From the IMG/VR virus record IMGVR_UViG_3300030098_004409, positions 46,289 through 110,288 of that record: DNA of 64,000 bases. One strand, given 5' to 3'. Source of the DNA: a virus. How positions within the stretch are numbered: the stretch's first letter is position 1; each line of letters opens with the position of its first letter. Made by a program: the position numbers and the translations under genes. The notes beneath the pieces were generated by a model, which was given only the letters and a program-made list of their open reading frames with translations, was not told where the DNA came from and searched no databases. Positions 1-18,183 of this stretch are shown piece after piece.

Positions 1-56
1 TCGTCGATGATTGGAACGATCTATTTTTTAATGTTATAGATAACTATAGGAAATAA
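1..56 (+). CDS. 3' end of an upstream gene (partial), possibly a glycosyltransferase
   Basis: Open frame 3..56 reads VDDWNDLFFNVIDNYRK*, ending just before the next ATG at 58. Product guessed from context only. Confidence 0.45.
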   Translation, partial: VDDWNDLFFNVIDNYRK

Positions 57-57
57 A

Positions 58-495
58 ATGAAGGTAATAATATCACATAAAAATCCCCAACAAAACAGTC
101 ACACATGGATACAAGACATATCAAATCTAGATGTTCTTGTCGATGATGCAGAGGCTACAGAGATAATCGTAGACAGCACTTTATGCACATTCAACTTTGC
201 TAATATTGGCGGAATCTTAAATAAGATAATGTCAAAGCTAAGGCTAAATGGTAAAATTGTAATATACGAAAAGGATATCGACATAGTTTGTTACACCTAT
301 AATAAGTCTGGAATGAACATACAAGACTTAAATAATCTTATTTTTGAAGAGACTCCAGCAGTGGCTTGCTTTTTGAACACAGAGGTTATATCTGACTTGC
401 TTACACAGGCCGGACTTACAATAGATGAAAAATTTGTAAACAATGACACCATGCAGTCAATAATAATCGCAAGGAGAACAAAAAATGCAATCTGA
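58..495 (+). CDS. Short class I methyltransferase-like protein (degenerate; no GxGxG motif)
   Basis: 145-aa ORF. Segment DDAEATEIIVDSTL...ILNKIMSKLRLNGKIVI resembles the C-terminal half of Methyltransf_11-type domains. Confidence 0.5.
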   Translation: MKVIISHKNPQQNSHTWIQDISNLDVLVDDAEATEIIVDSTLCTFNFANIGGILNKIMSKLRLNGKIVIYEKDIDIVCYTYNKSGMNIQDLNNLIFEETPAVACFLNTEVISDLLTQAGLTIDEKFVNNDTMQSIIIARRTKNAI

Positions 496-1309
496 ATATC
501 AAGTTGAAACATATTGTAAAAATTGTGTGTTTGCGGAATACACCGACAATAAACAAACAGGATGTGAGTTAGGTAGACATAAAATATTTAATCCGGAAGA
601 AGCCACCCGAGAAGAAGATGGTAAACACGCCTACGTGTTTAATAGATTTTGTACCGCCTTCCGTCCAGAAGAATGGAAGCTTGTCTTAGACGATGAAGAA
701 AAAAAGGATTTAGTTGCGACAGTAAAGTCTGAGATATTTCCCCCATTGGGTATTTTTATATTCTTAAAAACTACAGCGCCTAACCCGATACAGAATTTGA
801 AAAATAGGATACAAGAAATAAAAGATCAAACAGTTGGTAGTCTTAGATATATTGTGGTAATCAACAGTAAAGTAGAATATAATGAAGAAATACATAGCAC
901 ATTAAACGACTCCTTTGACTTTGATGAAACTGAGTTTCACATAGTGCAGACTCTATTGGAACAAAGAGATCTGCTATATATAGATGATGCCTTTAAGCAT
1001 GCAAAAAATGGCTGGATTTATGTAACCGAATCAAACTGCAAGATTAGAAAAGATCTCTTCGAGGCTATTGATTATAACATAAATGTTAAGCTTAACAGGG
1101 TTGTTCTTGTTGAACCATCAGACGGTATTCAGGGAATGATTTTTCAAGCCGCTATACATAAGTTTCTTGATGGTAGCAATAACATATTAGACATAAAAAA
1201 TGCTGCACAAGTAAGGGTTAACTTTTTAGAAAAAGTGAGAGCACTTGCTGAGAATAGCGATGAGAAAACAGTCTTTACACAAGAGGAGTTCTTTGATGCA
1301 GCTTCCTAA
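485..1309 (+). CDS. Hypothetical protein with N-terminal Cys cluster; possibly degenerate GT-A fold
   Basis: 274-aa ORF with CKNC...GC...RFC at the N-terminus; overlaps both neighbours. Confidence 0.5.
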   Translation: MQSEYQVETYCKNCVFAEYTDNKQTGCELGRHKIFNPEEATREEDGKHAYVFNRFCTAFRPEEWKLVLDDEEKKDLVATVKSEIFPPLGIFIFLKTTAPNPIQNLKNRIQEIKDQTVGSLRYIVVINSKVEYNEEIHSTLNDSFDFDETEFHIVQTLLEQRDLLYIDDAFKHAKNGWIYVTESNCKIRKDLFEAIDYNINVKLNRVVLVEPSDGIQGMIFQAAIHKFLDGSNNILDIKNAAQVRVNFLEKVRALAENSDEKTVFTQEEFFDAAS

Positions 1310-2135
1310 AGTATCAGTCATAATATCAAACTATAATTATGGAGACTATGTTTTAGATGCTATAGACAGCGCCCTCAAGCAGGACTATGAGGGACAAATA
1401 CGTGTCTACGTGCTAGATGACGGATCTTCCGATGGTTCTTGGGATAAAATTCGCACTTACTGCGGAGAAGATATTTCAAGCATAACAAATCAGCATGAAA
1501 TTGATGAACCATATTACAGGGGATCTATGGAGTCATTTCAATGTAATGATCTAGGTTTATGGTGTTATCGCATCAATAACTCAGGGGCGAGCACCGCTAG
1601 GAATGTTGCGATTTGGGAGGCTTGGAACTGGACAGACTATTTTGCTATTTTAGATGCAGACGATATGTATGATCCCTCAAAGATACGGAAACATGTAGAT
1701 GTGCTAATGAAGCACGACGAGGTTGGTGTAGCTTACTCCGACTACATTATACATAAAACTCATTACGGGAACGTTGACTATAAAAAGTACGAATACAAAT
1801 ATCCATATTCGATAAAAGAACTTCATAGGCAATGTATTGTGCATAGTGCTGGGTTAATAAAGAAACGACATTTAGAAAGGATTATACTTGAAAACAAAGA
1901 ATTTTATGACAGTGCTTTACATGGCCCAGCCTCTAAGGGCTTTATAGGGTGCACAGAAGATTATGATCTTTGGATTAGATTAGCTAACGTATGTATGATT
2001 AATCATATAGCAGAGCCGTTATCTTTTGTCAGGGAAACAGGGCAAAATCAATCCATGAAGATGAACCAGAGCATTTTTATTGACAACATGCAGAAAATTA
2101 AGAGCCGCGATGAGCAGATTCATACAAAAAATTAA
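1296..2135 (+). CDS. Glycosyltransferase family 2
   Basis: KVSVIISNYN, DDGSSD, NSGASTARN, LDADD and EDYDLW motifs. Start placed at ATG 1296 behind the GAGGAG RBS. Confidence 0.92.
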   Translation: MQLPKVSVIISNYNYGDYVLDAIDSALKQDYEGQIRVYVLDDGSSDGSWDKIRTYCGEDISSITNQHEIDEPYYRGSMESFQCNDLGLWCYRINNSGASTARNVAIWEAWNWTDYFAILDADDMYDPSKIRKHVDVLMKHDEVGVAYSDYIIHKTHYGNVDYKKYEYKYPYSIKELHRQCIVHSAGLIKKRHLERIILENKEFYDSALHGPASKGFIGCTEDYDLWIRLANVCMINHIAEPLSFVRETGQNQSMKMNQSIFIDNMQKIKSRDEQIHTKN

Positions 2136-2823
2136 ACGCAATTCTCTTACCACTGGTGTTGCTTTATTGTGTGCTGGTCTCGGTAATAGAATTAAATCCA
2201 ATGAGCCGAGATCTCTAATAAAGATAGGGGGTTCGTGCCTATTAAATTGGCAGCTAGATGCCCTCAGCTCTATGTTCGTGAAGCCCAATATTTTAGTCGG
2301 TGTCGGCGTAGAGTCACAAAAAATAATGAAGAGGTTTTCTGGTCAAGTTAGTTTTGTGGAAAATCAACTTTATGAAACAACAGGCTCATTTGAAACATTA
2401 AGACTTCTTGTAAACGCTTCCACAGATGATAGTATACTGCTTGTACATGGAGATTTGTACTTTAATAGTGATATACTAGAGACAGCAGATTTTTCTAAAT
2501 CGTTTGTTGTCTTGGATACTACTAACAGTATCGCAGATCGTGAAGTTGGAATGACTATGGTGAATGAAAAGGTTAGTATACTTTCATATGGACTAAAAGA
2601 TAAGTGGGCGCAAATGGCTTTCTTTACAGGAAAGGAGCTCGCTATGCTTAGGCAACTATGTTACAAGGCTAATCAAGAATCTAAGTCTCTATTAACATTT
2701 GAAATAATAAATTCTATAATCAACAAAGGTGGATCTTTTAAAGTGCATAAACCCAACAAAACCTTTATAGTTGAAATAGATTGTATGAAGGATATAAAGA
2801 ATGAAAATTTTAATATCAAGTGA
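2110..2823 (+). CDS. Nucleotidyltransferase (LicC/phosphocholine-phosphonate cytidylyltransferase-like)
   Basis: LCAGLGNRIKSNEPRSL signature, VENQLYETTG and HGDLYF. Start placed at ATG 2110. Confidence 0.75.
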   Translation: MSRFIQKIKRNSLTTGVALLCAGLGNRIKSNEPRSLIKIGGSCLLNWQLDALSSMFVKPNILVGVGVESQKIMKRFSGQVSFVENQLYETTGSFETLRLLVNASTDDSILLVHGDLYFNSDILETADFSKSFVVLDTTNSIADREVGMTMVNEKVSILSYGLKDKWAQMAFFTGKELAMLRQLCYKANQESKSLLTFEIINSIINKGGSFKVHKPNKTFIVEIDCMKDIKNENFNIK

Positions 2824-3847
2824 TGGGATGCACGCTCACTATTTCCAAAGGATGGCTTGGGCCAGAGCTTTTGCGGAATGTGGCGTACAAGTGTATTTTT
2901 GGGACTGCAAGAAAATACCTGCGTTTGATGCTTTCGATAGCTTCGAGCCAGATATGTTTATGGGGCAGTCCTATAACTTGGATAGGGCACTGCTCAAATG
3001 TATTTATGAAAGACCACACCTAAAAGTTGGACTCAGGGCGGGTGACTGGGGAGATTTTGAGCAAGACCAAAGGTTCAATATTCTCTATGCCACAGAACAC
3101 GAATTACAAACATTAAAAAAGTTAAAAGAAGAAACTGGCAAACCAGATTTTGTTCATATCCATTACGACCAAGAGGCTGTAGACCAGACACACTCGAAGT
3201 ATAAACAAATTGACATTGACGCTAAGTCCTTGATAATGTGCGCCGATATTCAAGACTATTTGAAATCTAATTATGATAACTCCTTAAATTGCGATATTGG
3301 GTTTGTCGGAGGCTACTGGCCTTACAAAGGAATTATTATAGACAACTACCTAACGCCGCTATGTCATCCGATTGGCAGGTACAATATCAAAATATTTGGT
3401 AATCAACCTTGGACAGGAGTCAACCAGTATTGCGGGCACATACAGGACAACAAAGTAAAGGACCTATTTGCCTCCGCTAGCATATGTCCCAACTTAAGTG
3501 AGCCACACGCCCATGAGTACGGATTCGATATTAATGAGAGATGTTTTAAGATATTATGTGCTGGTGGATTTTGCATATCTGACAACGTGTCTTCAATTAA
3601 AAAAATATTTGATGGTAATGGTGTAGTATTTGCAGACTCACCAGACGACTTCCGTGCAAAAATTGATTACTATCTTGACAATAAAGAAGAACGATTAGAA
3701 ATTAGTCGCACGGGCAGGGAGTTTGTTTTGAATAACCACACCAACTTTCATAGGGTAGCTGAAATACTATCATATTTTGGATACACTAAAGAATCTAATG
3801 ATATCATTAATGGCTGGAAGAAGGCCAAGGAACATGTAAATGTATAA
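2801..3847 (+). CDS. GT-B glycosyltransferase (CgeB/Glyco_trans_1_2-like)
   Basis: DIGFVGG, NERCFKILCAGGFCISD and the C-terminal KIDYYLDN..ERLEI...GREFVLNNHT pattern. Confidence 0.85.
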   Translation: MKILISSDGMHAHYFQRMAWARAFAECGVQVYFWDCKKIPAFDAFDSFEPDMFMGQSYNLDRALLKCIYERPHLKVGLRAGDWGDFEQDQRFNILYATEHELQTLKKLKEETGKPDFVHIHYDQEAVDQTHSKYKQIDIDAKSLIMCADIQDYLKSNYDNSLNCDIGFVGGYWPYKGIIIDNYLTPLCHPIGRYNIKIFGNQPWTGVNQYCGHIQDNKVKDLFASASICPNLSEPHAHEYGFDINERCFKILCAGGFCISDNVSSIKKIFDGNGVVFADSPDDFRAKIDYYLDNKEERLEISRTGREFVLNNHTNFHRVAEILSYFGYTKESNDIINGWKKAKEHVNV

Positions 3848-4799
3848 AGATAAAAAAGTTCTAGTGACTGGAGGCACTGGCTTCTTGGGAAAAGCTGTTG
3901 TCGATACTCTGCAGTCAAAAGGGTATAACGATATAGTTGCAATAGGCAGTTCAGTTGACCTGACATGCTGCGAAGAGACTCTCGCATACTTTGCGCGAAG
4001 AAAGCCCGAAGTAGTAATTCATCTTGCGGCTACCGTTGGAGGGATTGGGGCAAACAAAGAGAACCCCGGATTGTTCATGTACAATAATTTAGTGATGGGC
4101 ACTAACACTATCGAGGCTTCGAGGCTTAATAAAGTTGACAAGTTTGTCATGGTTGGCACTGTCTGCGCATATCCTAAATTCACCGCAGTGCCCTTTAAAG
4201 AGGAAGATATTTGGAATGGCTACCCAGAAGAAACAAATGCTCCATACGGAATTGCAAAGAAAGCACTTATGCAGCTTGTGCAATCATATCATGAGCAGTA
4301 CAACTTTAACGGTGTTAACCTCATCCCTGTTAATATGTACGGCCCTCATGATAACTTCGATCCTGCTATAAGCCATGTAATCCCTGCGCTGATACTTAAA
4401 TTTTATAAAGCTATGAAGTTTAACTTGGAAGCCGTAGAAGTTTGGGGAACTGGCGAGGCAAGCAGAGAGTTCTTGCACGTTTATGATTGTGCCAATGCTA
4501 TCAGTTTGGCGCTAGAAAAAGATGTATCCCCAGAACCAATTAACATAGGCACTGGCGGCGAAATACAAATAAAGTATCTTGCCCACACTATCGCAGAAGT
4601 AATGGGATATGACGGATCTATATATTTTAATTCTGACTATCCAGACGGACAGCCCAGAAGACAGCTAGATATTAGTCGGGCTAAACAGAGGCTAGGATAT
4701 GAGCCACAAATAGACCTGCTAGAGGGTCTTGAGACCACGATAGACTGGTTTATGGGTAACAAGGAGACTTTTGATGTTTACCTCAATCGTATTCAGTAA
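3840..4799 (+). CDS. fcl: GDP-L-fucose synthase
   Basis: VTGGTGFLG, HLAATVGGIGAN, GTVCAYPK, YGIAKK, PVNMYGPHDNF, SHVIPALI and WGTGEASREFLHV motifs. Confidence 0.95.
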   Translation: MYKDKKVLVTGGTGFLGKAVVDTLQSKGYNDIVAIGSSVDLTCCEETLAYFARRKPEVVIHLAATVGGIGANKENPGLFMYNNLVMGTNTIEASRLNKVDKFVMVGTVCAYPKFTAVPFKEEDIWNGYPEETNAPYGIAKKALMQLVQSYHEQYNFNGVNLIPVNMYGPHDNFDPAISHVIPALILKFYKAMKFNLEAVEVWGTGEASREFLHVYDCANAISLALEKDVSPEPINIGTGGEIQIKYLAHTIAEVMGYDGSIYFNSDYPDGQPRRQLDISRAKQRLGYEPQIDLLEGLETTIDWFMGNKETFDVYLNRIQ

Positions 4800-5652
4800 G
4801 GATAGACCTTTACAGCTTGATCTATGCCTTAAAAGCATAAAACAAAATCTATTTGCCAATAATAAGATTGTTGTTCTATACGCTACGTCTGATGGGTATG
4901 ATATAAACTACAACCAATTAATTGATGAGCATTTGGATGTAGAATTTTTTAAGCAGCGTTACAGTATATTTGAACACATAAGAACTATACTTGACGACGC
5001 ATCTGAGCATATAATGTTCTTTACAGACGACGATATAGTTTATAGAAAGTGCCAGCCGACAGAGGATGATATAAATTCTGCGTTTAATAATGATGCGTGC
5101 TGCATCTCTCTTAGGCTAGGACTCAATACATCCATGAGGGATTATGGTGATGGAGTTTTGAGAAGAGATAACATACCAGAACAAATTATGAGGATTTGTA
5201 ATACGTTAGTTTGGAATAGGACATCTATTCCTGTGGGCGGCTATTGGGCGTATCCACTTTCTGTAGATGGGCACATATTTAAGACTAGTGATATGAAAAA
5301 ATTTACTGAGGAATTATGCGTCCTGAACCAGTATTACGATAACTGCGGAGAAGTTCCCAGAGCGAAGCGCGCTTGGAATCAAACACCAAATGAGTTTGAG
5401 TCAAAACTGCAAAGGTTTTTCTTTGATATATCTCCCATAATGGCGTGTGCAGAATATAGCTGTGTGGTAAATTCCCCAAACAATAGGGTACAAAATACAG
5501 TGGCAAATAGGAGTGGCGATGTATATAATTATACAGCCCTAGACTTAAAATACGAATTTGACGAAGGTCGAAGAATTAGCCTAGACAGAATAACTATAGA
5601 CGACATAATATGTCCACATCAAGAAATAAATATATTGGAGGGCTTATCATGA
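4774..5652 (+). CDS. GT-A fold glycosyltransferase
   Basis: FSKDRPLQLDLCLKSI N-terminus and FFTDDDIVY (DxD). ATG 4774 follows AAGGAG. Confidence 0.7.
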   Translation: MFTSIVFSKDRPLQLDLCLKSIKQNLFANNKIVVLYATSDGYDINYNQLIDEHLDVEFFKQRYSIFEHIRTILDDASEHIMFFTDDDIVYRKCQPTEDDINSAFNNDACCISLRLGLNTSMRDYGDGVLRRDNIPEQIMRICNTLVWNRTSIPVGGYWAYPLSVDGHIFKTSDMKKFTEELCVLNQYYDNCGEVPRAKRAWNQTPNEFESKLQRFFFDISPIMACAEYSCVVNSPNNRVQNTVANRSGDVYNYTALDLKYEFDEGRRISLDRITIDDIICPHQEINILEGLS

Positions 5653-6290
5653 TATTTAACTTACATCAGATTATAAATCATTACCAAATGAATATAGGAG
5701 GCGCTATACATGTCGGCGCGTTTGTTGGCGAAGAGCTTGATGCATACAGATCTCTAGGTCTCACAAACACAATAATGTTTGAGCCACAGAAAACACTTTA
5801 TGAAATAGTAAAGTCGAAATGCATAGACGATGAGAGAGTGTATAATGTAGCTCTTGGTAGCCATGCACATACTACAGAAATGTATATATCTTACACTGAA
5901 GGCGGCATATCTAACGGTTCTGGAGCTTCTAGCTCACTATACAGACCTAAGAAACATTTAACGGAGCATCCGCAGGTTAAATTTAATTCAAAGGAAGAGG
6001 TAAGGGTTGAATGCCTAGACGATTTTTTACTAGATAATAATATAGATGTTTCGGGTTATAACTTTTTAAATATAGACGTTCAAGGGTATGAATTAGAGGT
6101 TTTAGCTGGTGCTATCAAGCTTCTCCCTCAAACAGATATGGCGATTGTAGAAGTCAACAGAGATGAGGTTTACGAAGGTTGCCCTATGGTTGAAGAGATA
6201 GACCAGTTAATGAATGTATATGGCCTCCAGAGGGCGCACACTTTTTGGCAGTCAGAAAGTTGGGGCGATGCCCTATATGTGAGGTTATAG
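5649..6290 (+). CDS. FkbM family methyltransferase
   Basis: IHVGAFVG, FEP, NVALG, LNIDVQGYELEVLAG and WGDALY motifs. ATG 5649 follows GGAGG. Confidence 0.92.
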   Translation: MIFNLHQIINHYQMNIGGAIHVGAFVGEELDAYRSLGLTNTIMFEPQKTLYEIVKSKCIDDERVYNVALGSHAHTTEMYISYTEGGISNGSGASSSLYRPKKHLTEHPQVKFNSKEEVRVECLDDFLLDNNIDVSGYNFLNIDVQGYELEVLAGAIKLLPQTDMAIVEVNRDEVYEGCPMVEEIDQLMNVYGLQRAHTFWQSESWGDALYVRL

Positions 6291-6291
6291 T

Positions 6292-7098
6292 ATGAATTTT
6301 TTTGAAATGTGCCAAATAGAGACATCTTTATTTAATATTGACTTTGCTAAGCAAGATCCAGACTGGGCAATGGTAAAAGATGCCTATGATAATAACCTTG
6401 CGCGCAATGACGACGACTGCAAGATACCGAAGATAATTCACTTCATATGGCTTGGCAGTGAGCTTCCCGATAAATATATCGAGATAATAAACGGCTGGAA
6501 AAAACACAACCCTGAATTTGAAATATGGATTTGGGATGACAAAAAAGTAGAAACATTCCTGCCTCAAATGATAAACAAAGATTTGTATGCAGAGACAGAT
6601 AGCTTTGGTCATAAGTCAGACATGCTTAGGTATGAAATACTTAAGAGGTATGGAGGACTTTATGCGGATGTAGATTTCCTATGCAATGCCAATTTTTCTG
6701 GTTCTCATAATAAGTATTGCTTCTATGCTGGTATATGTTTAGAGAGACCTGTACAACTAAATAATGGAATTATGGCATCTATGCCTAACCATCCAATATT
6801 AGATATATGTATCGCACAAATGAGACTGGACAATCCTTGGGGTATACAGTGCCCGCAAACTCTTGTCCTGTATCAAACTGGACCTTGGGCGTTAACTAGA
6901 AGTGTTTTACACTACATGAAACATTTTGGAGATGATGGTATAATGATATATCCCTCTACTACATTTCATCCGTTTCCGGCAGCCTTTAGACATGACGCTA
7001 CAGATGAGCTGGTTAAATCTTACTACAGACCTTGGACTATGGCTTGCCATTTATGGCACTCAAGCTGGCAACCAGATTCGGAGCACTATAATGGATAA
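6292..7098 (+). CDS. Glycosyltransferase family 32 (OCH1-like, DxD)
   Basis: KIPKIIHFIWLG, SDMLRYEILKRYGGLYADVD, TGPWALT and HLWHSSW motifs. Confidence 0.92.
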   Translation: MNFFEMCQIETSLFNIDFAKQDPDWAMVKDAYDNNLARNDDDCKIPKIIHFIWLGSELPDKYIEIINGWKKHNPEFEIWIWDDKKVETFLPQMINKDLYAETDSFGHKSDMLRYEILKRYGGLYADVDFLCNANFSGSHNKYCFYAGICLERPVQLNNGIMASMPNHPILDICIAQMRLDNPWGIQCPQTLVLYQTGPWALTRSVLHYMKHFGDDGIMIYPSTTFHPFPAAFRHDATDELVKSYYRPWTMACHLWHSSWQPDSEHYNG

Positions 7099-7906: not shown

Positions 7907-8469
7907 TGGAACATTTTTTTCAAGAGTTAGATGGATGGTTTGACGATCCTATAGACAAAGAGCTTTATAGTGAGATGGTAAACAAGTACCCGTCTGGTAG
8001 CCACTTTGTTGAAGTAGGAAGCTTCAAAGGTAAGAGCGCGTCACTCATGGCAGTAGAGATGATAAATAACGACAAAGATATTAAGTTTGATTGTGTCGAT
8101 ACTTGGCTTGGCTCACCTGAGCATCAGATCTTAGCCGAAGTAAGAAATGACACGCTGTTTAATATTTTTACAGAGAATATAAAACCAGTTGCACATAAGG
8201 TCAACGCTATTAGAGCCGCTTCAGTAGAGGCGTGCAGTCTTTATGAGGACAAGAGCCTAGACTTTGTATTCATTGATGCCGACCATAGTTACGAAGCGGT
8301 AAAAGAAGACTTAGAAGCATGGTTTCCAAAAATGAAAGATGGCGGAACGATTGCTGGGCATGACTATGGAAACCCTACTAACGGGGTAAAGCCCGCTGTT
8401 GATGAGTTCTTTTTGGAAAAAGATCTTGAAGTAGCTACTCTAAGGCATTTATGGAAAGTGTATCTGTGA
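7906..8469 (+). CDS. Class I SAM-dependent methyltransferase (Methyltransf_24-like)
   Basis: FVEVGSFKGKS, CVDTW, LDFVFIDADHSYEAV and GGTIAGHDY motifs. Confidence 0.92.
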   Translation: MEHFFQELDGWFDDPIDKELYSEMVNKYPSGSHFVEVGSFKGKSASLMAVEMINNDKDIKFDCVDTWLGSPEHQILAEVRNDTLFNIFTENIKPVAHKVNAIRAASVEACSLYEDKSLDFVFIDADHSYEAVKEDLEAWFPKMKDGGTIAGHDYGNPTNGVKPAVDEFFLEKDLEVATLRHLWKVYL

Positions 8470-8472
8470 GAT

Positions 8473-8503
8473 CAGTAAAATTTTAAATAAGGAAACTAAA
8501 TAA
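8473..8503 (+). repeat. 31-bp direct repeat, copy 2
   Basis: CAGTAAAATTTTAAATAAGGAAACTAAATAA; matches 7876-7906 at 27/31 positions. Confidence 0.8.
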
Positions 8504-8539
8504 ATGAAAAAAAATATCAAGTATGGAGTCTGGCATTAA
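8504..8539 (+). pseudogene. 11-codon mini-ORF (MKKNIKYGVWH), probable gene remnant
   Basis: ATG directly after repeat copy 2, which carries an AAGGA RBS-like sequence; stops after 11 codons. Confidence 0.35.
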
Positions 8540-8555
8540 TTAAAGGGGTTTATTG

Positions 8556-9470
8556 ATGAAATTAGTATATATAACAAATGAAGATCCAAATTCTCAGTGT
8601 GACTATCAAGAGGTTTCTATGTTGCACGGACTTAGAGAAGTTCTGGGCGACGACTGCATTGATTTTCCACGCAAGAAAATAATGTACGGAGATTTCTCCG
8701 AGTCTCCCAAAAATGAGCTTCACGGATGGGGATTTAGTTTATTGACAGAGCCAATAGCAGAGGTAGAAAATCGTGAGCTGAAAGACATTGACTTTGTGCT
8801 GTATGGAGTAACTGACGCATATGGTGTTAAGAACAACCCCGTAATAGATCGACTAGCAAAGCATGGCGTTTGGTATTTAGATGGCCATGACCATAGTAAT
8901 ATAACCAGAACTCCATGTTTTAAAAGAGAGCTTTACAGGTTCGGGTGGCTTGAAGAAGATCAAAACGTTTTTCCTACAGGTTTTGGCATACCTGAGCATA
9001 GAATTATACCTCTTAACTTTGACAACAAAACACAGCTTATACAGAAAACAGCGCCTCCTTATGCCGCCTTTGGCCCACAAATACTAGGTCCGGCAGCTAG
9101 ACAATTATACGTATTTAATAATGAAGAAGAGTATTATCAAGATATGCATAGGTCTTTCTTTGGTTTGACCTGTATGAAAGGTGGATGGGATTCACTTAGG
9201 CATTATGAAATATTAGCTAGTGGTGCATGTCTTCTATTTAGAGACTATGATAGGAAACCAAAACCATGTGCCCCACAAGAGCTACCCTGTTTTTCTTATA
9301 ATAGCATGCAGGATTTAGAAAGTCTATTCAACCGTCTTATAGTAGACGATAAGCCAACACAGGAGTATATAGAGATGGTGTGCGCACAAAGAGAATGGCT
9401 CTGGACTTGCGGTACAACAAAAGCTAGAGCGATTAAACTATTGGAGGTTTTAAATGAGCAAATATCATGA
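8556..9470 (+). CDS. GT-B glycosyltransferase-like protein
   Basis: YLDGHD, FKREL and YYQDMHRSFFGLTCMKGGWDSLRHYEILASG, a C-terminal GT-B nucleotide-binding pattern. Confidence 0.75.
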   Translation: MKLVYITNEDPNSQCDYQEVSMLHGLREVLGDDCIDFPRKKIMYGDFSESPKNELHGWGFSLLTEPIAEVENRELKDIDFVLYGVTDAYGVKNNPVIDRLAKHGVWYLDGHDHSNITRTPCFKRELYRFGWLEEDQNVFPTGFGIPEHRIIPLNFDNKTQLIQKTAPPYAAFGPQILGPAARQLYVFNNEEEYYQDMHRSFFGLTCMKGGWDSLRHYEILASGACLLFRDYDRKPKPCAPQELPCFSYNSMQDLESLFNRLIVDDKPTQEYIEMVCAQREWLWTCGTTKARAIKLLEVLNEQIS

Positions 9471-10227
9471 TTTTTTACCCGACAACAACCTAGAAAAGAA
9501 ATACTTTTCTGAAATAGCCAGCCATATAGAATCGGACGTTACTATTGTCTCGAAGAATTTTGGAGATCCAATGCCAGATGTTCCCGGCGATAAGATTATA
9601 TTTATGAACGCCGATGAGCAGTATCGCACTCCCGAGGAAGTAAATGATCCAAGCGTAAAGTTAATATTCAAACAGTACTGCAGAGAAGGGCAACATGAAA
9701 AACTCAGACCGTTACCTCTTGGCCCCTCTAAAGACTTTAACTACACGCCGAACTCTTTTGATGATAGAACTTACGATGTTACATTTGTGGGTCAGATCGC
9801 GCAGAATAGAGCTATGTTCTTTGCTGAAATATATGATTTCCTGTCTGATCATAGCGTAAATTCTTTCTTCGGTTTGTATCAGGGTTTTAATAAAGGGCTT
9901 GATATGGAATCCTACTCAAAAGTGTTATCAAATACAAAGATTGCTATCTGTCCTCACGGCAGCGCCAGTCCAGAAACATTTAGATTTTTTGAGGCCATGT
10001 CTGCGGGATGTGTTGTTATTTGTGCTCAACAGCCAGATAATTGGATATATAGAAACGCTCCGTATAACACTATAGCTAGGGGGAATGTTTACAGCACTGT
10101 CAAGACATTGCTTTCTAATCCAGCTGCGCTAAGGCTGTTGTCGGATAAGTCAAAAGAATACCATAACAGTAGATTAACTGCATCACCAGTCGCTCAGTAT
10201 GTTAGCGATCAATTAGGGAGTATATAA
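9454..10227 (+). CDS. Exostosin/GT47-like glycosyltransferase
   Basis: RTYDVTFVGQ and YSKVLSNTKIAICPHGSASPETFRFFEAMSAGCVVI. Confidence 0.8.
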   Translation: MSKYHDFLPDNNLEKKYFSEIASHIESDVTIVSKNFGDPMPDVPGDKIIFMNADEQYRTPEEVNDPSVKLIFKQYCREGQHEKLRPLPLGPSKDFNYTPNSFDDRTYDVTFVGQIAQNRAMFFAEIYDFLSDHSVNSFFGLYQGFNKGLDMESYSKVLSNTKIAICPHGSASPETFRFFEAMSAGCVVICAQQPDNWIYRNAPYNTIARGNVYSTVKTLLSNPAALRLLSDKSKEYHNSRLTASPVAQYVSDQLGSI

Positions 10228-11018
10228 TGTTTAGTCGAAACCCACACTATCCATCACCGAAATACATAGAGAAAGATATCACAATATGTCTTCATGCGGG
10301 TTCTGATCCAGAAGTCGTTAAGAGCCAAGTTGAACTTCTAAAACCTCTAGAAGAAGAGTTTAACGTACATTGGAACAAAAGAATTGATCGTCGCCCAGCG
10401 GCATATGACTCCTATTCGGAACTAGTTAACGAAGCGGTCGCAACATCTCCAACAGAGACAGTAATTCTTGTCAATGACCGAGTTGTGCCAGAGCCTAGAG
10501 AAGTACGTTTTATGCTGCAATTACTCCACAGAGGATATGCTGTGGCAGGACAGTGGAACGTAGCATTTATGGCTTTAACTAAAGAAGTGTTTAGAAAAAT
10601 AGGCTGGTTCGACGAAAGGTTTTACGGCGGAGGATGTGAAGACGATGACTTTGCTCTACGACTAAGGCTGGCAAACTTGGCTTATTTTGAGGCTTTGTCA
10701 TGCGAATATGATCAGACTTGGAAAAGCCCTTTGCTCAAAAAGGATGGGGCTAAGTGCGCGATATCTGGCCCATACTTTCATAGAAAGTGGACACAAACGC
10801 CGAACGAAATACGTAGAGTTATTCCAGAGGAAAGTTATCCCAAATGGGACGCTATAGTTGGCGAAGCTCGACCAGACATAAGTAGCCAGTGGTTAGATTG
10901 GTCTCATTCAATTATCGGGATGGATTTTGGTCGGAGAGAGACAGATGGAGACTCAAGGACTTATCACTTTATGTTGGATGATTATAAGACAGAGTACAGG
11001 AAAGTTACTAGTGTATGA
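10227..11018 (+). CDS. GT-A glycosyltransferase (GT2 with GT7C-like motif)
   Basis: ILVNDRV and FRKIGWFDERFYGGGCEDDDFALRL. Confidence 0.85.
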   Translation: MFSRNPHYPSPKYIEKDITICLHAGSDPEVVKSQVELLKPLEEEFNVHWNKRIDRRPAAYDSYSELVNEAVATSPTETVILVNDRVVPEPREVRFMLQLLHRGYAVAGQWNVAFMALTKEVFRKIGWFDERFYGGGCEDDDFALRLRLANLAYFEALSCEYDQTWKSPLLKKDGAKCAISGPYFHRKWTQTPNEIRRVIPEESYPKWDAIVGEARPDISSQWLDWSHSIIGMDFGRRETDGDSRTYHFMLDDYKTEYRKVTSV

Positions 11019-11650
11019 AAATACTTTTTTGTGGATATAGAACATGGTCTATCAGGGCCTATGATATTTTAGGTAGAGTGTTTGATCTTGCCTCTAGCCC
11101 GCAAGAGCTAGAAGAAAAAACCTCTAAAGCTCATTATGATATTATATTCTTTGTGGGATGGAGCTGGATGATAGAGCAGCAACTAATGCAATCTAGCAAG
11201 TGTATATGTATGCATCCTTCGCCATTACCAAAATACAGAGGAGGCTCTCCGATACAAAACCAAATAATAAACGGAGAGAAAGAGAGCGCTGTTACATTTT
11301 TTGTAATGGATGAAAAAATGGATCATGGGAAAATATTGTGGCAGGAGAAACTTTCTTTAGAGGGTGACTTAGCTTCTATATTTCTTGATATGTCGCTATT
11401 AACAAAGGCTGGAATACTACACATACTAAATAATCCTAACGACGAAGGAAAAGAGCAGGACCATAGTCAGGCCACCATATATAAGCGTAGAAAACCAAAA
11501 GATAGCGAAATAAAACCTGAAGATTTTTATGCCTCAACAGCTGAAGAATTATATAATAAGATAAGGTGTTTGCAGGGACCTTACCCAAAGCCATTCATAA
11601 AATGCAGAGATGGTACAATACTATATATAACCGGAGCAAAGTGTGACTAA
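11015..11650 (+). CDS. Formyltransferase (Fmt/ArnA N-domain-like; likely sugar N-formyltransferase)
   Basis: HPSPLPKYRGGSPIQNQI, MDEKMDHGKI, QDHSQATIY and IRCLQGPYP motifs. Confidence 0.88.
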   Translation: MKILFCGYRTWSIRAYDILGRVFDLASSPQELEEKTSKAHYDIIFFVGWSWMIEQQLMQSSKCICMHPSPLPKYRGGSPIQNQIINGEKESAVTFFVMDEKMDHGKILWQEKLSLEGDLASIFLDMSLLTKAGILHILNNPNDEGKEQDHSQATIYKRRKPKDSEIKPEDFYASTAEELYNKIRCLQGPYPKPFIKCRDGTILYITGAKCD

Positions 11651-12272
11651 GAAGTTAATAATCGCGCCGCATGTTGATGACGATGTGCTTGGGTGTGGTG
11701 GCATAATTGATGACAATACATTTGTACTTTATTGTGGCTTAAATGAGTCTGACTTAATTGACAGACCTTCTATGAGAGTACGTCTTGACGAAGCGGATAA
11801 GGCGGCAGCTTACTTGGGTCATGAGTATCTTCTTCTAGAAAACAAGGTTAATAATTATATTATCCCGGACTTAATATCTCCTATAGAAAAAACTATAAAT
11901 GATATAAAACCGGAAGAGATATATATCCCATATCCGTCTTATAACCAAGACCACAGAGTTGCATATGAGGCAGCTTTAGTTGCATTGCGACCTCACGATA
12001 ATAACTTCTTTGTAAAGAAGGTGTTCGCTTATGAGCAACCTCATGTTTTCTTGTGGGACAACTCGCATCAAATTGACTCGGCATTTAAGCCAAATTACTA
12101 TAAGCCGATTGATGTAAAAAGAAAAATCAAAGCTTATGAACTTATGGAGACACAGGTGAGAGCGTTTCGTAGCCAAGAAACAATAAAGTCTATGGCTCAA
12201 CTTAGGGGCGCTCAGTCAAACTTAGACTACGCAGAAGCGTTTCAAATTTTAAGATACGTGGAGGAAAAATGA
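11643..12272 (+). CDS. PIG-L/LmbE family N-deacetylase
   Basis: IAPHVDDDVLGCGG, NQDHR and terminal YAEAF. GTG start overlaps the upstream stop. Confidence 0.88.
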   Translation: MTKKLIIAPHVDDDVLGCGGIIDDNTFVLYCGLNESDLIDRPSMRVRLDEADKAAAYLGHEYLLLENKVNNYIIPDLISPIEKTINDIKPEEIYIPYPSYNQDHRVAYEAALVALRPHDNNFFVKKVFAYEQPHVFLWDNSHQIDSAFKPNYYKPIDVKRKIKAYELMETQVRAFRSQETIKSMAQLRGAQSNLDYAEAFQILRYVEEK

Positions 12273-13234
12273 ACAATATACTAATTACAGGCGGACTTGG
12301 ATTTATAGGCGCACACTGTATAGAAAAATGGTCAGAAGAGGAGTGGTCTGTATATGTAATAGACAATTTGTCTTCTAACACTATAACTGCGGAGCATCCG
12401 ATAGCTCAAAATGTCACGTTTATAGAAGCAGACGTAATTGATATCGACTGGGAAGAGTTGCCAAAATTTGACTTGGTTTTACATCTTGCCTCTCCTGTTG
12501 GGCCAGTTGGTGTCCTTAAGCACTCTGGTGTTATGGCTGACATTATACTTAAGGATATATACTCAGTAATCGAGGGCGCAAAACATAATGACTGCCCACT
12601 TGTATTTGTCTCTACTTCGGAGATATATGGACATAGAGACTCTAAAACTTATTTGTCAGAAGTTGGTGACAAAGTTCTAAAGGGTGAGTTTACCGTTCGT
12701 AATGAATATGCAATAGCGAAGCTTTTGTCTGAGATTGTGCTTTCCAACTGCGCTAAAATAAACAAAGATTTTAAGTACCAAATCATTCGCCCATTTAATG
12801 TGACCGGCGCGCATCAGCTTCCAGACGGAGGTTTTGTTCTTCCTAGATTTGTAAAGCAGGCGCTAGATGGAGAAGATATTACTGTATACTATAGCGGCGA
12901 ACAGATCAGAGCTTTCACTTGGGTCAAGGATATCGTAGAGGGTATATACTTAACATCAACTGCCCCAGATGAACTATGGAACGAAGAGTGGAACATTGGC
13001 AACGAGAAAAATGAAGAGAGTATTCTTTATCTTGCAAAAAGAGTAAAAGCTCTTACAGGTTCTCAATCTAGAATAGCTCATGTAGACCCCGTAGCGCTTC
13101 ATGGGAAGCTGTTTTCAGAAGCCCCTGAAAAGATACCAGACGCATCTAAGATCAAGCAGAAGCTAGGCTGGAAGCCCACAAAGGGGATAGATGACGTTAT
13201 CAAAGAAGTGGTAGAATTTTGGAGTAACCAATGA
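12269..13234 (+). CDS. NAD-dependent epimerase/dehydratase, UDP-glucuronate decarboxylase (UXS/ArnA C-domain)-like
   Basis: ITGGLGFIG, HLASPVG, STSEIYG, RNEYAIAK (YxxxK), RPFNVTG, VLPRFVKQAL and RAFTWVKD. Confidence 0.8.
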   Translation: MNNILITGGLGFIGAHCIEKWSEEEWSVYVIDNLSSNTITAEHPIAQNVTFIEADVIDIDWEELPKFDLVLHLASPVGPVGVLKHSGVMADIILKDIYSVIEGAKHNDCPLVFVSTSEIYGHRDSKTYLSEVGDKVLKGEFTVRNEYAIAKLLSEIVLSNCAKINKDFKYQIIRPFNVTGAHQLPDGGFVLPRFVKQALDGEDITVYYSGEQIRAFTWVKDIVEGIYLTSTAPDELWNEEWNIGNEKNEESILYLAKRVKALTGSQSRIAHVDPVALHGKLFSEAPEKIPDASKIKQKLGWKPTKGIDDVIKEVVEFWSNQ

Positions 13235-13920
13235 ATATTATAGAGCAGATATATTATAATGATGTCAAGCTACATCCTTCTTATTTTGAGAAGTATAGAA
13301 AAGTTCCTAAGTATCCGGGACAAAGAGAGTCTGGCGGGTGGAATAAGCACAGTGGATGGAGAGGGCATGACTTTCCTAGAGTGTGGTGTATACTAGACTT
13401 CATTGAGTGGACAAGTCAAATTGAATTATCTGGGCATATTGGCGTTACAGACGATGAAGACCCTGAGCTAGAGTTTGTAGAGAATAGATTCTCCAAAAAG
13501 ACAGTATTAAGTTATCCTCCGCACGACTTGCATGACGAGATTAAAACAGACGAGGGCTTTGACTTTTTTCTATTTAGCCAGACAATAGAACATTTATATA
13601 ATCCGCATCTGGCTATCCGAAACATTAGAAATGCGATGAAGCCTTCTGGTCTTGTGTTTACAAGTGTGCCAACTATAAATATACCGCACATGACACCAGT
13701 CCACTTTGGTGGCTATACGCCGATGGGCTTAGCTTCAATGTTTATTTTGAGTGGATTCCAAGTTGTTAAAATGGGTCAGTGGGGCAATCATGATTATATC
13801 TCAAAGATTTTTGAAAAGCATACATGGCCTGACTTCTATGAATTAGCGAACGAAAATGGTGAAGTAACTAACGAAGAAAGAAATTGTTGTCAGTGTTGGA
13901 TTTTAGCGAGGGCTATATAA
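13231..13920 (+). CDS. Methyltransferase type 11-like protein
   Basis: FDFFLFSQTIEHLYNP...MKPSGLVFTSVP; canonical GxGxG not obvious. Confidence 0.7.
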   Translation: MNIIEQIYYNDVKLHPSYFEKYRKVPKYPGQRESGGWNKHSGWRGHDFPRVWCILDFIEWTSQIELSGHIGVTDDEDPELEFVENRFSKKTVLSYPPHDLHDEIKTDEGFDFFLFSQTIEHLYNPHLAIRNIRNAMKPSGLVFTSVPTINIPHMTPVHFGGYTPMGLASMFILSGFQVVKMGQWGNHDYISKIFEKHTWPDFYELANENGEVTNEERNCCQCWILARAI

Positions 13921-14711
13921 TGAAGAAGATATTTTTCTGCATGGCAGAGTACCCAGAGCCTAGACAGGGCTTCTTTTTAAAGTATATGTCAAAAGCTAAT
14001 CAGAAATATTCAGACATGCATGGCTTTGAGTACATAGAAATGACAAGCTTGCCCAGAGAAGAAGATGGGGAGTTTTGGAGAAATAATCCTACATGGCTAA
14101 AGCACAAAGTTGTTCATGACTGGATTGAAGAAGGTTTTGTTGAAGACGGAGATATAGTCTCACACATAGACGCTGATATCGCTATTGCCAAGTTTGATAA
14201 GTCATTTGAACCAAGTGAAGGCAAATCCTTTGGTTACGCGATTGATTCCTGCAATACGCATTGCATGGGAGCGTATACAATTAGAGTGAACGATTGGTCT
14301 AGAAATATGTTAAAGAATATGCTTGATGAAGAGTTCTACCAAAGAATGAAACACAACAAATCTCCTGAGCATACAAATCCGATAACAGGACAACCGAACT
14401 GGGAGCTATTTAGAGAACAGGCGTCTTGGTATACAATGTCAGGACTACCTCTCCATAGCTGGATTCCATTTGCGCAACTACCTAACTATGGCTTTCACAT
14501 GAACAAATCTTCCGAAACAATCTACTCGATAGACGAGCTGCTTGAGAATGTAGAAATCTTCCCGACAGAATGGAACGTAACTCATATCCCTGAAGAAGAT
14601 GGAGAGGACAGGTTCTACATAAATCCCACAGTAACAGAAGATACTATACTTAGACACTTTGCTGGCGGAAGAGCATGGAGAGCACACTACTTTACTGGAG
14701 AAGAGCAATGA
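13920..14711 (+). CDS. GT34 (MNN10/GMA12)-like glycosyltransferase
   Basis: YSDMHGFEY, WLKHKVV, HIDADI (DxD), EQAS, EWN and ILRHFAG. ATG 13920 overlaps the upstream TAA. Confidence 0.75.
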   Translation: MKKIFFCMAEYPEPRQGFFLKYMSKANQKYSDMHGFEYIEMTSLPREEDGEFWRNNPTWLKHKVVHDWIEEGFVEDGDIVSHIDADIAIAKFDKSFEPSEGKSFGYAIDSCNTHCMGAYTIRVNDWSRNMLKNMLDEEFYQRMKHNKSPEHTNPITGQPNWELFREQASWYTMSGLPLHSWIPFAQLPNYGFHMNKSSETIYSIDELLENVEIFPTEWNVTHIPEEDGEDRFYINPTVTEDTILRHFAGGRAWRAHYFTGEEQ

Positions 14712-15172
14712 AAAAAATAGCCGCTATATTAGACACGTTAGCTGCATCACAAAACTCATTCTATTTAATAAAAGAGTTTAATAAACTGCATAAAAACTAT
14801 GAGTATTCACCCGTGTGTTTTTACAACAATTTAAGTGCCACGCCAGTCAAGACTTTCTTTGCTTGTATGAATGTTTCGTATTACTCATATTTCGACGGAG
14901 TGACAATAGCCACATCTATCGAAACCGCAGATACTATTTTGAAAACAAAGAATAGATCTGAGAAGAAGTTTCTTTACTTATGGGATCTTGAATGGATAAG
15001 AGGATCTATGGATTTTAATTATGTAAATTCTGTGTTATCTGATCCTAATTTGGCTATAATAAGTAGAAGCAATTCGCACAAACAACTAATAGAAAACTAT
15101 TGCAATAAAGAAGTTTCTGGTATTGTTCAAGACTGGAACATGGAGCAGTTGGAGGAAATAATATGGACATAA
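14708..15172 (+). CDS. Hypothetical protein resembling an isolated GT-B N-terminal domain
   Basis: IATSIETA...KKFLYLWDLEW...IISRSNSH pattern; only ~154 aa from ATG 14708. Confidence 0.5.
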   Translation: MKKIAAILDTLAASQNSFYLIKEFNKLHKNYEYSPVCFYNNLSATPVKTFFACMNVSYYSYFDGVTIATSIETADTILKTKNRSEKKFLYLWDLEWIRGSMDFNYVNSVLSDPNLAIISRSNSHKQLIENYCNKEVSGIVQDWNMEQLEEIIWT

Positions 15173-16718: not shown

Positions 16719-17047
16719 TGAAAGTTCAATTAAATGCTGGTAAATTAAACGTAGCTTTTGAAGGCGAAACTGTCCGTGAATTATGGAAACAGATTGCTAT
16801 ATTTCAAGAGGTGTTTGGTGAAACTACATGTGGCAAATGTGGCTCAGAGAATCTCAGATTCGTTGTAAGAGAAAACGACGGAAACGAATACTATGAGCTT
16901 CGCTGTATGGATTGTGGAGCTAAGCTATCGTTTGGCGCCAACAAGAAGGGTGGAGGTTTGTTCCCTAAACGTAAGGACGCCGATGGAAATTGGCTACCTG
17001 ACGGTGGGTGGCAAAGATGGAACCCTAAAACGAAATCCCTTGAATAA
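16718..17047 (+). CDS. Zn-ribbon protein
   Basis: CGKC...CMDC. ATG 16718 overlaps the upstream TAA and follows GGAG. Confidence 0.7.
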   Translation: MKVQLNAGKLNVAFEGETVRELWKQIAIFQEVFGETTCGKCGSENLRFVVRENDGNEYYELRCMDCGAKLSFGANKKGGGLFPKRKDADGNWLPDGGWQRWNPKTKSLE

Positions 17048-17065
17048 GGGTGCTCCGGTTAAGGC

Positions 17066-17102
17066 GACCTCGCTCAGGGATACTTGGGCGAGGTTTCTTT
17101 AT
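17066..17102 (+). terminator. Intrinsic terminator of the + strand operon
   Basis: ACCTCGCTCAGG-GATA-CTTGGGCGAGGT 12-bp stem (2 G-U pairs) followed by TTCTTTAT. Confidence 0.8.
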
Positions 17103-17105
17103 GGC

Positions 17106-17140: not shown

Positions 17141-17163
17141 AATGGACTTAAAGGCTCAAGTCT

Positions 17164-18157: not shown

Positions 18158-18183
18158 GAGCACTCATTGAGTTAAATTTTATG

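Follow-up and report, generated by a model that had tools for sequence, protein, structure and literature searches.

A fixed-locus glycan gene island with a conserved core and mosaic distal modules, a candidate virion glycosylation system, in a widespread lineage of uncultured aquatic tailed phages

We analysed a 64,000-nucleotide stretch of viral DNA (hereafter, the window) that spans bases 46289-110288 of a 110,288-bp viral contig without terminal repeats (IMG/VR record IMGVR_UViG_3300030098_004409). The window opens within an island of glycan genes that occupies one locus in this phage and in four relatives, and in which a conserved core is followed by modules that are exchanged between close relatives. 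We consider glycosylation of the virion or of other phage proteins to be the leading reading of this island, and we judge its chances to be about even. Earlier work had already described large sets of glycan genes in phages, glycosylated virions in mycobacteriophages and the glycan clusters of giant viruses. What is new here is the fixed-locus arrangement of a conserved core and mosaic distal modules in an uncultured and very widespread lineage, together with a verified minimal GT47 fold and an apparently mobile cassette located beside Ser-rich repeat proteins. An initial annotation of the same DNA, made from the sequence alone, had proposed a proteoglycan-like system that glycosylates the virion. 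The virion part of that proposal is a reasonable leading hypothesis, with an apparently self-contained set of soluble enzymes behind it; the proteoglycan part is not supported.

How large is the island? Between window positions 58 and 15172, 20 open reading frames (ORFs) run in the same direction on the + strand. The island itself starts 3.7 kb upstream of the window, at genome position 42577, where three GT4 glycosyltransferase (GT) genes directly follow the sigma gene, and in total it comprises 23 genes in 18.9 kb, so that the tightly coupled cluster described in the initial annotation is real and larger than was supposed. Neighbouring genes overlap or are separated by at most 1 bp at 21 of the 22 junctions, and the single gap measures 83 bp. 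Because the GC content of the island (0.387-0.394) equals that of the replication arm (0.392), a recent import from bacteria was rejected. The strongest hairpin in positions 1-18700 lies at 17066-17095, and no strong terminator was found inside the island. For comparison we used five genomes, namely this phage (G000) and its relatives G001-G004, four of the five being 94-100% complete, and seven further IMG/VR contigs (within L086-L097) that were chosen as carriers of a homologue of the island's GT47 gene. Pfam matches were scored against curated cut-offs and NCBIfam matches against equivalog cut-offs. The island genes of the window and the features that follow them are listed here, with sizes in amino acids (aa).

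58-495 (+): 145-aa island gene without a family (no Pfam or NCBIfam match); homologues at the same island position in G001 (55%) and G003 (31%).
485-1309 (+): 274-aa island gene without a family (no matches), Cys-rich at its N-terminus; conserved in the proximal block of L086-L097 (38-94% identity).
1245-2135 (+): GT2 glycosyltransferase (Pfam Glycos_transf_2, 68 bits).
2080-2823 (+): nucleotidyltransferase (NTP_transf_3 / IspD-like; Pfam, 33.8 bits), predicted to activate a sugar or polyol; homologues in the minimal islands of G003 and G004.
2801-3847 (+): GT-B glycosyltransferase (Glyco_trans_1_2, CgeB-like; Pfam, 91 bits).
3840-4799 (+): Fcl-like short-chain dehydrogenase/reductase (SDR) of the GDP-6-deoxyhexose 3,5-epimerase/4-reductase type (Pfam Epimerase, 200 bits).
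4771-5652 (+): 293-aa island gene, possibly a GT-A enzyme (no Pfam match).
5610-6290 (+): FkbM-type methyltransferase (Pfam Methyltransf_21, 67 bits).
6292-7098 (+): GT32-type (DXD) glycosyltransferase (Pfam Gly_transf_sug, TcdA_TcdB, Caps_synth).
7091-7906 (+): minimal soluble GT47-fold glycosyltransferase by its predicted structure, 271 aa (Pfam Exostosin_GT47, 63 bits).
7906-8469 (+): Methyltransf_24 O-methyltransferase-like protein (Pfam, 74.7 bits).
8553-9470 (+): 305-aa island gene without a family (no matches); conserved at 69-96% in L086, L088, L091 and L094.
9454-10227 (+): second, weak GT47/RXYLT1_C-like protein (Pfam RXYLT1_C, 23 bits, and Exostosin, 18 bits, both below cut-off).
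10227-11018 (+): GT-A protein with a GT7C motif (Pfam Glyco_transf_7C, 27.7 bits over 38 residues only); weak match to K4 chondroitin synthase (E 0.04).
11015-11650 (+): sugar N-formyltransferase-like protein (Pfam Formyl_trans_N, 63 bits).
11643-12272 (+): PIG-L/LmbE-type de-N-acetylase (Pfam PIG-L, 38.5 bits).
12269-13234 (+): UXS/ArnA-C-like SDR, a candidate UDP-GlcA (UDP-glucuronic acid) decarboxylase, with TSEIYG and YxxxK motifs.
13231-13920 (+): class I S-adenosylmethionine (SAM) methyltransferase (Pfam Methyltransf_23, Methyltransf_11).
13920-14711 (+): GT34-like GT-A protein, a lead only (no Pfam match; ESM Atlas).
14675-15172 (+): 165-aa gene that closes the island in all variants (no family match); homologues at the island end in G001, G003 and L086-L097.
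15163-17047 (+): three conserved non-glycan genes (helix-turn-helix (HTH) and endonuclease-like; unknown; Zn ribbon) that form the fixed 3' flank; found in all five genomes, with weak HTH, RAP and Zn-ribbon matches.
17066-17095 (+): terminator-like hairpin that ends the + strand unit (13-bp stem, 7 GC pairs).

The Pfam scans covered the 20 island ORFs of the window, the three upstream GT4 genes and the other glycan genes of the contig that were examined. In the island, matches above cut-off were obtained for the three GT4 proteins, GT2, NTP_transf_3, Glyco_trans_1_2, two SDRs, GT32/Gly_transf_sug and Exostosin_GT47, and also for the FkbM methyltransferase, Methyltransf_24, the class I methyltransferase, Glyco_transf_7C, Formyl_trans_N and PIG-L. 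Pfam searches at E values up to 10 added nothing for six island ORFs; those starting at 58, 485, 8553 and 14675 have no family match or lead, and that at 4771 has a weak GT2 lead alone, from a viral ESM Atlas cluster of 1278 members. Across the contig, 11 GTs lie above the Pfam cut-offs and 3-4 further candidates are weaker. Most of the family calls of the initial annotation, including GT47, therefore stand by Pfam, and some have to be softened. Its second exostosin-like protein (9454) falls below the cut-offs. For its Fcl and UXS-like proteins, the best NCBIfam matches are indeed GDPFucSynFcl (GDP-fucose synthase) and PRK11908 (UDP-4-keto-pentose/UDP-xylose synthase), at 303 bits against a cut-off of 500 and 104 bits against 294, with ArnA following PRK11908 at 79 bits, again below cut-off. 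Its GT34-like protein has an ESM Atlas lead (ORF 13884-14711, score 0.97, viral clusters carrying PF05637, in a record starting at residue 13) and no Pfam match, and its 'cytidylyltransferase' is, by Pfam, an NTP transferase in the broad sense.

In the whole-genome comparison, the island was found at one locus in all five genomes. The gene order is DnaE-C, the single-stranded DNA-binding protein SSB (with sigma-70 in the closer relatives), two GT4 genes that we call GT4-549 and GT4-368, the variable genes, the conserved non-glycan trio and finally the tail-fibre genes, which end convergently there. In the more distant G002-G004, the island is minimal, with eight genes in 4-5 kb. G001 shares the first half of the island with this phage at 49-89% identity and is without everything from ~5610 to 14711, in place of which it carries Gmd (369 bits), a DegT fragment, a GT10 fucosyltransferase, GT25, a GT47-like gene, Sulfotransfer_2 and methyltransferases. 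All seven further contigs keep the order of the proximal block (40-99% identity). L086 retains the whole island (81-99% identity), and the others have a rearranged or substituted distal block. The outer half of the island is thus hypervariable and is swapped between close relatives. Two of its genes, those of the formyltransferase and the PIG-L protein, which overlap (11015-12272), are both present in G000, L086, L091 and L097 and both missing from G001, L087, L089 and L094, whose contigs cover that part. This co-occurrence suggests a route of de-N-acetylation followed by N-formylation, which would need no aminotransferase. In L091 and L097, a UGDH homologue also lies inside the island, next to the genes of the GT7C-motif GT, the formyltransferase and PIG-L.

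The two GT4 genes at the island start, present in all five genomes, form the most constant part of this arrangement. GT4-549 has more than 1865 homologues, many of them from Tara and other aquatic metagenomes, and the best 120 are all at least 52% identical at 541-567 aa. Its identity across G001-G004 (38-68%) is comparable to that of the tube protein and DnaE. The protein has invariant CxxC...CxxC cysteines, which form a conserved Zn ribbon, and a C-terminal extension with a helical domain. Its model (pLDDT 87.8) shows a GT4 GT-B fold, for which the best match in the PDB is the chlorovirus NY-2A GT B736L (E 4.5e-18), and the matches in BFVD are generic viral GT4s. Among 185,579 prokaryote species (one genome each), GT4-549 occurs in only 16 loci, all of them on contigs of metagenome-assembled genomes (MAGs) from unrelated phyla. 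Because it is so rare in prokaryote genomes, and is found there only on MAG contigs that look mis-binned, GT4-549 behaves as a viral core gene. The lineage contigs in question (L098-L113, some of 152-158 kb) were assigned to MAGs labelled Flavobacteriales, SAR202, Verrucomicrobiales, Hydrogenophaga, Promethearchaeota and others; as these are likely mis-binned phage contigs from unrelated phyla, we rejected any inference of the host from the labels.

The GT47-fold protein was characterised further. Its ORF opens at 6992, and its homologues place the true start at 7091, which gives 271 aa and an 8-bp overlap with the stop of the GT32 gene. There are 407 homologues, of 271-277 aa, many on contigs longer than 100 kb; one of them (P0125) is a GT32-GT47 fusion. 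The Exostosin_GT47 match is well above its cut-off of 33.4 bits, and phmmer aligned the protein with EXT1 (E 6e-5). When an AlphaFold (AF2) model (pLDDT 92.4) was compared with the PDB by Foldseek, the top 12 matches were human EXT1, EXT2 and EXTL3 (E 2e-10 to 4e-9; TMq 0.57-0.65). The chlorovirus A075L entries 8q8i, 8avq and 8asa ranked 23-27 (E ~6e-6 to 1e-5), below all EXT matches. A075L, a cytosolic enzyme, formerly carried an exostosin annotation and is now the founder of GT114 (PMC11571054). We rejected the A075L/GT114 family for the 7091-7906 protein, because the EXT folds are closer and there is no sequence-level match to A075L. Since EXT1, EXT2 and EXTL3 lead the fold matches, the model indicates a true GT47-fold enzyme in a minimal, soluble form. 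At 271 aa, such enzymes could serve as convenient models of how exostosins work.

How might these enzymes act together? We infer an order of enzyme action, a set of sugars and a class of acceptor. The two invariant GT4 enzymes would start the glycan. The conserved proximal block, with the third GT4, the GT2, the nucleotidyltransferase, the CgeB-like GT-B, the Fcl-like SDR, the FkbM methyltransferase and the GT32-GT47 pair, would then build a common inner glycan. The mosaic distal block, which here holds the GT47-like protein, the GT7C-motif GT, the formyltransferase, PIG-L, the UXS/ArnA-like SDR, methyltransferases and the GT34-like protein, would add strain-specific outer residues, and from its genes we predict decoration with a pentose or uronate-derived sugar, an N-formylated amino sugar and O-methyl groups. 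With soluble enzymes throughout and no gene for a lipid-carrier or export step, assembly would most likely be cytoplasmic and occur directly on phage proteins, as in chloroviruses, mimiviruses and some mycobacteriophages. Hydrophobic segments of transmembrane (TM) grade are missing from all island proteins. In G000-G004, there is no polytopic protein of the Wzx/Wzy/WecA type (PF00953, the WecA-type family, was not searched directly), and the only proteins with at least three hydrophobic segments are tape measures and small ORFs. The Bac_transf priming transferase (PF02397) was found in none of the five genomes and in 10/14 control genomes. By these searches, the island does not match an O-antigen or capsule locus of the Wzx/Wzy- or ABC-dependent type.

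These absences bear directly on an alternative, in which the soluble enzymes act on host lipid-linked intermediates at the inner membrane face, and the host's own priming, flippase and ligase functions finish a remodelled O-antigen, capsule, S-layer or cell-wall glycan. Such remodelling could serve superinfection exclusion, reduce the adsorption of progeny to lysed debris or help to evade grazers, and competition between phages, through diversifying selection, would account for the mosaic distal block. It is the standard, if untested, reading of the lipopolysaccharide (LPS)/cell-wall gene sets of cyanomyoviruses (PMC12801897). Hypervariable glycan loci are typical of surface polysaccharides, and the island, by gene order and hairpins, is transcribed together with replication genes of the early or middle class. 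However, none of the four essentially complete relatives has a lipid-carrier, priming, flippase, polymerase, ligase or ABC exporter gene, and the PAP2-like protein encoded near the left contig end (described below) is not membrane-embedded. The initiating GT4s are conserved in relatives from the sea, from freshwater and from sediment, which must infect different hosts, and are absent from isolate genomes, which fits a conserved viral acceptor better; the island also costs 15-20% of the genome, in a phage in which no integrase was seen. In view of the core-gene GT4s found across habitats, the lack of membrane steps and the parallels with chloroviruses and mimiviruses, we favour a virion acceptor over host glycans, and regard remodelling of the host envelope as a serious, though less probable, rival.

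Could the acceptor instead be DNA? The island adjoins the replication module, a T4 gp1-like deoxynucleoside monophosphate (dNMP) kinase is encoded, and GT4-549 carries its conserved Zn ribbon. The GTs might then build glycans on modified phage bases, by which restriction and nucleic-acid-targeting defences would be evaded. T-even phages and the systems of Pyle et al. 2024 reportedly bear glycans on modified DNA bases. Viral GTs that hypermodify DNA are also cited in PMC12619734. Against this, the thymidylate-synthase-family hydroxymethylase (PF00303) was found in 10/14 control genomes and in none of G000-G004, and 23 genes with methyl-, formyl- and deacetyl-tailoring and 8-11 GTs far exceed known DNA glycan systems. 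A Tet/JBP search gave no match, and is uninformative because no control genome matched either. We regard DNA hypermodification as very improbable. The enzymes might also make some other cytoplasmic product that supports infection, such as a soluble glycoconjugate, a glycolipid, or a storage or osmoprotective oligosaccharide. All of the enzymes are soluble, and the fold neighbours of GT4-549 include the small-molecule GTs BshA and MshA, sucrose-phosphate synthase and the maltose-1-phosphate synthase GlgM. Nevertheless, mosaic, strain-specific outer decoration by 8-11 GTs would be unexpected for a metabolite, and the island has no recognisable aglycone pathway, which leaves this explanation improbable.

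If a phage protein is the acceptor, which one might it be? The initial annotation pointed to virion proteins enriched in Ser-Gly (SG), and had itself named equal enrichment in relatives without the cluster as grounds for abandoning the idea. We compared observed SG counts with within-protein shuffles (permutation tests), using phage lambda as a control. In this phage the ratio is 1.37x for structural and 1.23x for non-structural proteins; it is 1.33-1.56x in the relatives regardless of island size, and 1.61x in the structural proteins of lambda, which is not known to glycosylate its virion. The reverse dipeptide GS is near 1.0 in most sets (0.90-1.14). Since an excess is also seen in the relatives and in lambda, the SG signal is generic and gives no evidence for a sequon; on these tests the Ser-Gly sequon was rejected as an acceptor site, and the proposed co-occurrence with the cluster was not borne out. 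A second place considered is a loop in the following protein.

54224-55306 (-): tube-position protein with an S/T/G/P-rich loop at residues 173-206 (alignment A2, S/T-rich scan).

This loop is lineage-specific, being ~13 residues longer in G000 and G006 than in other relatives, and as a glycan site it is suggestive only.

Several points weigh against glycosylation of the virion by the island. First, none of the signals examined singles out an acceptor: the Ser-Gly signal does not set these phages apart from lambda, the possibility that S/T-rich content tracks island size was rejected because such segments are few and show no correspondence, and the relatives' major capsid protein (MCP) has no S/T-rich extension or tail. 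Second, the island lies in the replication-side + strand unit and not in the virion operon. It was described as being next to the virion module, which is true of its position, but the three conserved non-glycan genes and the convergent hairpin (17066-17095) stand between it and the tail-fibre end. Third, the lack of TM helices is shared by peripheral GTs of O-antigen and capsule loci, which can rely on the host for priming and export. Fourth, the contig is only ~71% complete (CheckV), and the phage has no assigned host and no cultured relative in INPHARED, where tblastn with the tube-position protein returned nothing and with GT4-549 only matches of 21-25% identity, in Synechococcus and Pontimonas phages.

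A protein acceptor is more directly suggested by a second, smaller group of genes at the other end of the window. This four-gene cassette lies in the virion operon, just upstream of the gene for a Ser/Ala-repeat protein.

61457-62239 (-): GT2_4/GT92-like glycosyltransferase, the first cassette gene, in the head-neck segment (Pfam, 61.6 bits).
62236-62943 (-): sulfotransferase (Sulfotransfer_1; Pfam, 49 bits), whose closest PDB sequences are cytosolic plant and animal SULTs.
62921-63601 (-): TTL/YheCD-like ATP-grasp ligase (Pfam TTL, 21 bits, cut-off 20.1; YheCD, 19 bits, below cut-off).
63594-64000 (-): small radical-SAM protein, of which the window includes the C-terminal part.
60023-61381 (-): Ser/Ala-repeat protein, candidate acceptor for the cassette (24% Ser; units of ~20 aa and a 10-aa C-terminal repeat).

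The GT and the sulfotransferase at 61457-62943 had been noted before, and both exceed the Pfam cut-offs. The cassette recurs in contig L114 (L114:498-6287) at 85-92% identity (GT 92%, sulfotransferase 90%, ATP-grasp 85%), where the radical-SAM homologue is complete, with 267 aa, a CX3CX2C motif and a C-terminal Cys cluster. Elsewhere L114 is divergent, with identities of 41-45% for the neck proteins, 31-49% over the neck and tube range and 42% for GT4-549. From these identities, the cassette looks like a mobile protein-modification module that moved between divergent phages. In L114 it is likewise upstream of a Ser-rich repeat protein, of 451 aa, and in this phage's closest relatives, G006 and G007, the Ser/Ala-repeat protein lies between the MCP and neck genes. 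That the same cassette landed twice beside a Ser-rich repeat protein points to a protein acceptor, and gene position suggests that it probably modifies the adjacent repeat protein. This is the best circumstantial link to a protein acceptor, with no direct bearing on the large island; the earlier proposal of the Ser/Ala-repeat protein as acceptor is accordingly retained, on circumstantial grounds, for the cassette (61457-64000) and not for the island. Within the repeat gene there is also a 30-bp DNA tandem repeat (6.4 copies, 60102-60292), and a 437-aa open frame runs antisense through it (window 60099-61412, + strand), probably as an artefact of the repeat's codon composition.

The genome is that of a tailed phage, organised in two arms. 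The + strand arm carries ribonucleotide reductase, then RecA, DnaB, primase, the dNMP kinase and a PD-(D/E)XK nuclease, followed by a split DnaE, SSB and a sigma-70-like factor. Tail and neck genes make up the - strand arm (window 61381 down to 17164), in which the protein at the tape-measure position has 3849 aa. A PHROGs scan of ten structural proteins of the window gave no match, and no tRNAs were found in the contig. In the syntenic relative G001 (145 kb, 94% complete), genes for a head protease, TerL, portal and major head protein sit directly upstream of the homologues of the window's neck genes, from which we place the head module beyond the window end. IMG/VR holds 43 contigs that encode relatives of the tube-position protein, the complete ones being 143-192 kb. 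With relatives from marine, freshwater and sediment samples, this is an uncultured and very widespread aquatic tailed-phage lineage.

Other features of the genome were also observed. The protein at the tape-measure position (window 40117-51666, - strand) reaches 6899 aa in G002 (64580-85279); if tail length scales as usual, the tails may be extraordinarily long, or alternatively the protein may carry cargo domains. A 332-aa paralogue of the tube-position protein, ~24% identical to the relatives' copies of that protein, is encoded beside the ribonucleotide reductase genes, far from the virion module (genome 17751-18749, L001). Between the two DnaE halves lies a 270-aa UGDH-like gene, with the N-terminal and central domains only, which adjoins a GIY-YIG/T5orf172 gene (genome 38036-39521; window -8252 to -6767; L002:18036-19521); neither is found at the DnaE site in G001-G004. 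A second set of glycan-type genes, shared with G001, lies at the left end of the contig (genome 406-9695, L001) and comprises an SDR, a soluble PAP2-like protein, a weak GT4-like gene, Sulfotransfer_2, an 812-aa protein in which two radical-SAM/SPASM units are combined, and a GT4 conserved throughout the five genomes. The PAP2-like protein is without hydrophobic segments, and its assignment as an undecaprenyl-PP phosphatase was rejected for this reason.

Taken as a whole, the glycosylation of phage proteins by the island and the cassette would give particles coated with a complex glycan, made entirely by soluble phage enzymes, with a conserved inner core and a swappable outer part containing fucose or perosamine, a pentose, an N-formyl amino sugar, O-methyl groups and possibly sulfate, and with the cassette decorating a Ser-rich repeat fibre protein. 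The enzymes would include folds (GT47, GT34, GT32 and GT10) otherwise typical of eukaryotes and giant viruses. We put forward this full picture tentatively, as something short of an even chance. So far, virion glycosylation has been demonstrated only in a few mycobacteriophages and in giant viruses that infect eukaryotes. If the picture is true, complex and fast-diversifying virion glycosylation would be common among abundant environmental phages, and this system would be a phage counterpart of chlorovirus and mimivirus glycosylation and the first virion glycome reported outside the phages of Actinobacteria. It would matter for how particles adsorb, how stable they are and how they stick to marine gels and mucus, and also for how phage and host recognise each other. 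If the host surface is the target, the island would be the largest contiguous example of the unexplained 'LPS gene' sets of marine phages. The fixed locus, the invariant GT4 pair, the conserved proximal block and the swappable distal modules offer a natural experiment for assigning GT specificities.

How does this system compare with those already known? The animal proteoglycan pathway, with which the initial annotation drew a functional parallel, has in common with it a GT47-fold enzyme, a UXS/ArnA-like SDR, a UGDH-like gene (elsewhere in the genome), a de-N-acetylase and sulfotransferases. However, the deacetylase is a PIG-L protein and not NDST, the sulfotransferase is SULT-like, the GT7C match covers 38 residues and the Ser-Gly signal is unspecific. 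The families that define the linker did not surface: the Pfam scans returned only GT2, GT4, GT32, GT47, GT7C, GT2_4/GT92 and Glyco_trans_1_2 among GTs, and none of GT14 xylosyltransferase, GT31 (GalT-II), GT43 (GlcAT-I) or GT64. No bifunctional enzyme of the NDST type surfaced in these scans either, the sulfotransferase being encoded 46 kb from the deacetylase, in another operon. The system does not belong to the animal proteoglycan / heparan sulfate pathway. The serine-rich repeat glycoprotein systems of Gram-positive bacteria (GtfA/GtfB; SdgA/B) resemble the cassette only, in that a Ser-rich repeat protein lies beside modifying enzymes; GtfA and SdgB show generic GT-B similarity among the weaker matches here. 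In contrast to those systems, there is no DUF1975, no accessory Sec and no repeat homology, the cassette GT is a GT-A enzyme, and its partners are a sulfotransferase, an ATP-grasp and a radical-SAM protein.

Among phages, the cyanophage LPS sets are also large: S-SCSM2R carries 22 LPS/cell-wall genes, including 13 GTs, perhaps the highest number in a marine phage, and shares this set with S-SCSM1 and P-SSM2 (PMC12801897). Like the island, these sets combine many GTs and NDP-sugar epimerases with no export genes. The present phage belongs to a different lineage, with a tape-measure-type tail module and no T4 core, and its island is contiguous at one fixed locus, is built as a core plus mosaic, and includes GT47-fold and GT34-like proteins, a formyltransferase and PIG-L. 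For mycobacteriophages, two sources (PMC12619734, PMC12363180), both citing Freeman 2023, report glycosylation of the capsid and tail tube. In Che8, Corndog and Myrna, phage GTs were reportedly shown to glycosylate these proteins, which for the present phage is only proposed. Of the two gene groups here, the small cassette lies inside the virion operon, between the MCP and neck genes. The differences are that those phages have few GT genes and actinobacterial hosts, against 23 + 4 (+ ~7) genes here; that the main island is in the replication arm; that the relatives' MCP has no C-terminal S/T extension; and that there is no sequence relationship, given the low identity of the core GT4 matches in INPHARED.

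The chloroviruses and mimiviruses provide a further parallel. Soluble virus-encoded GTs glycosylate capsid proteins, as in the case of A075L (PMC11571054), and the clade-specific fibril glycan clusters of mimiviruses comprise 6-33 genes, one with sulfate metabolism (PMC9614988). As in those viruses (for PBCV-1, A064R, A075L and A111/114R), soluble GTs, sugar-nucleotide enzymes and methyltransferases are encoded here without a membrane pathway, and a conserved inner part is combined with a clade-variable outer decoration. A small cytosolic GT-B enzyme annotated as an exostosin (A075L) is known in chloroviruses, and the core GT4 fold is nearest to B736L. The present virus differs in being a tailed phage of prokaryotes and not a nucleocytoviricot, in the gapless, operon-like run of its genes, and in a GT47-fold protein that is nearer to EXT1, EXT2 and EXTL3 (E ~2e-10) than to A075L/GT114 (E ~6e-6). 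In its soluble GTs, its own sugar-nucleotide and tailoring enzymes and its lineage-specific content, the predicted gene set of the island agrees with autonomous cytoplasmic glycosylation of the giant-virus type.

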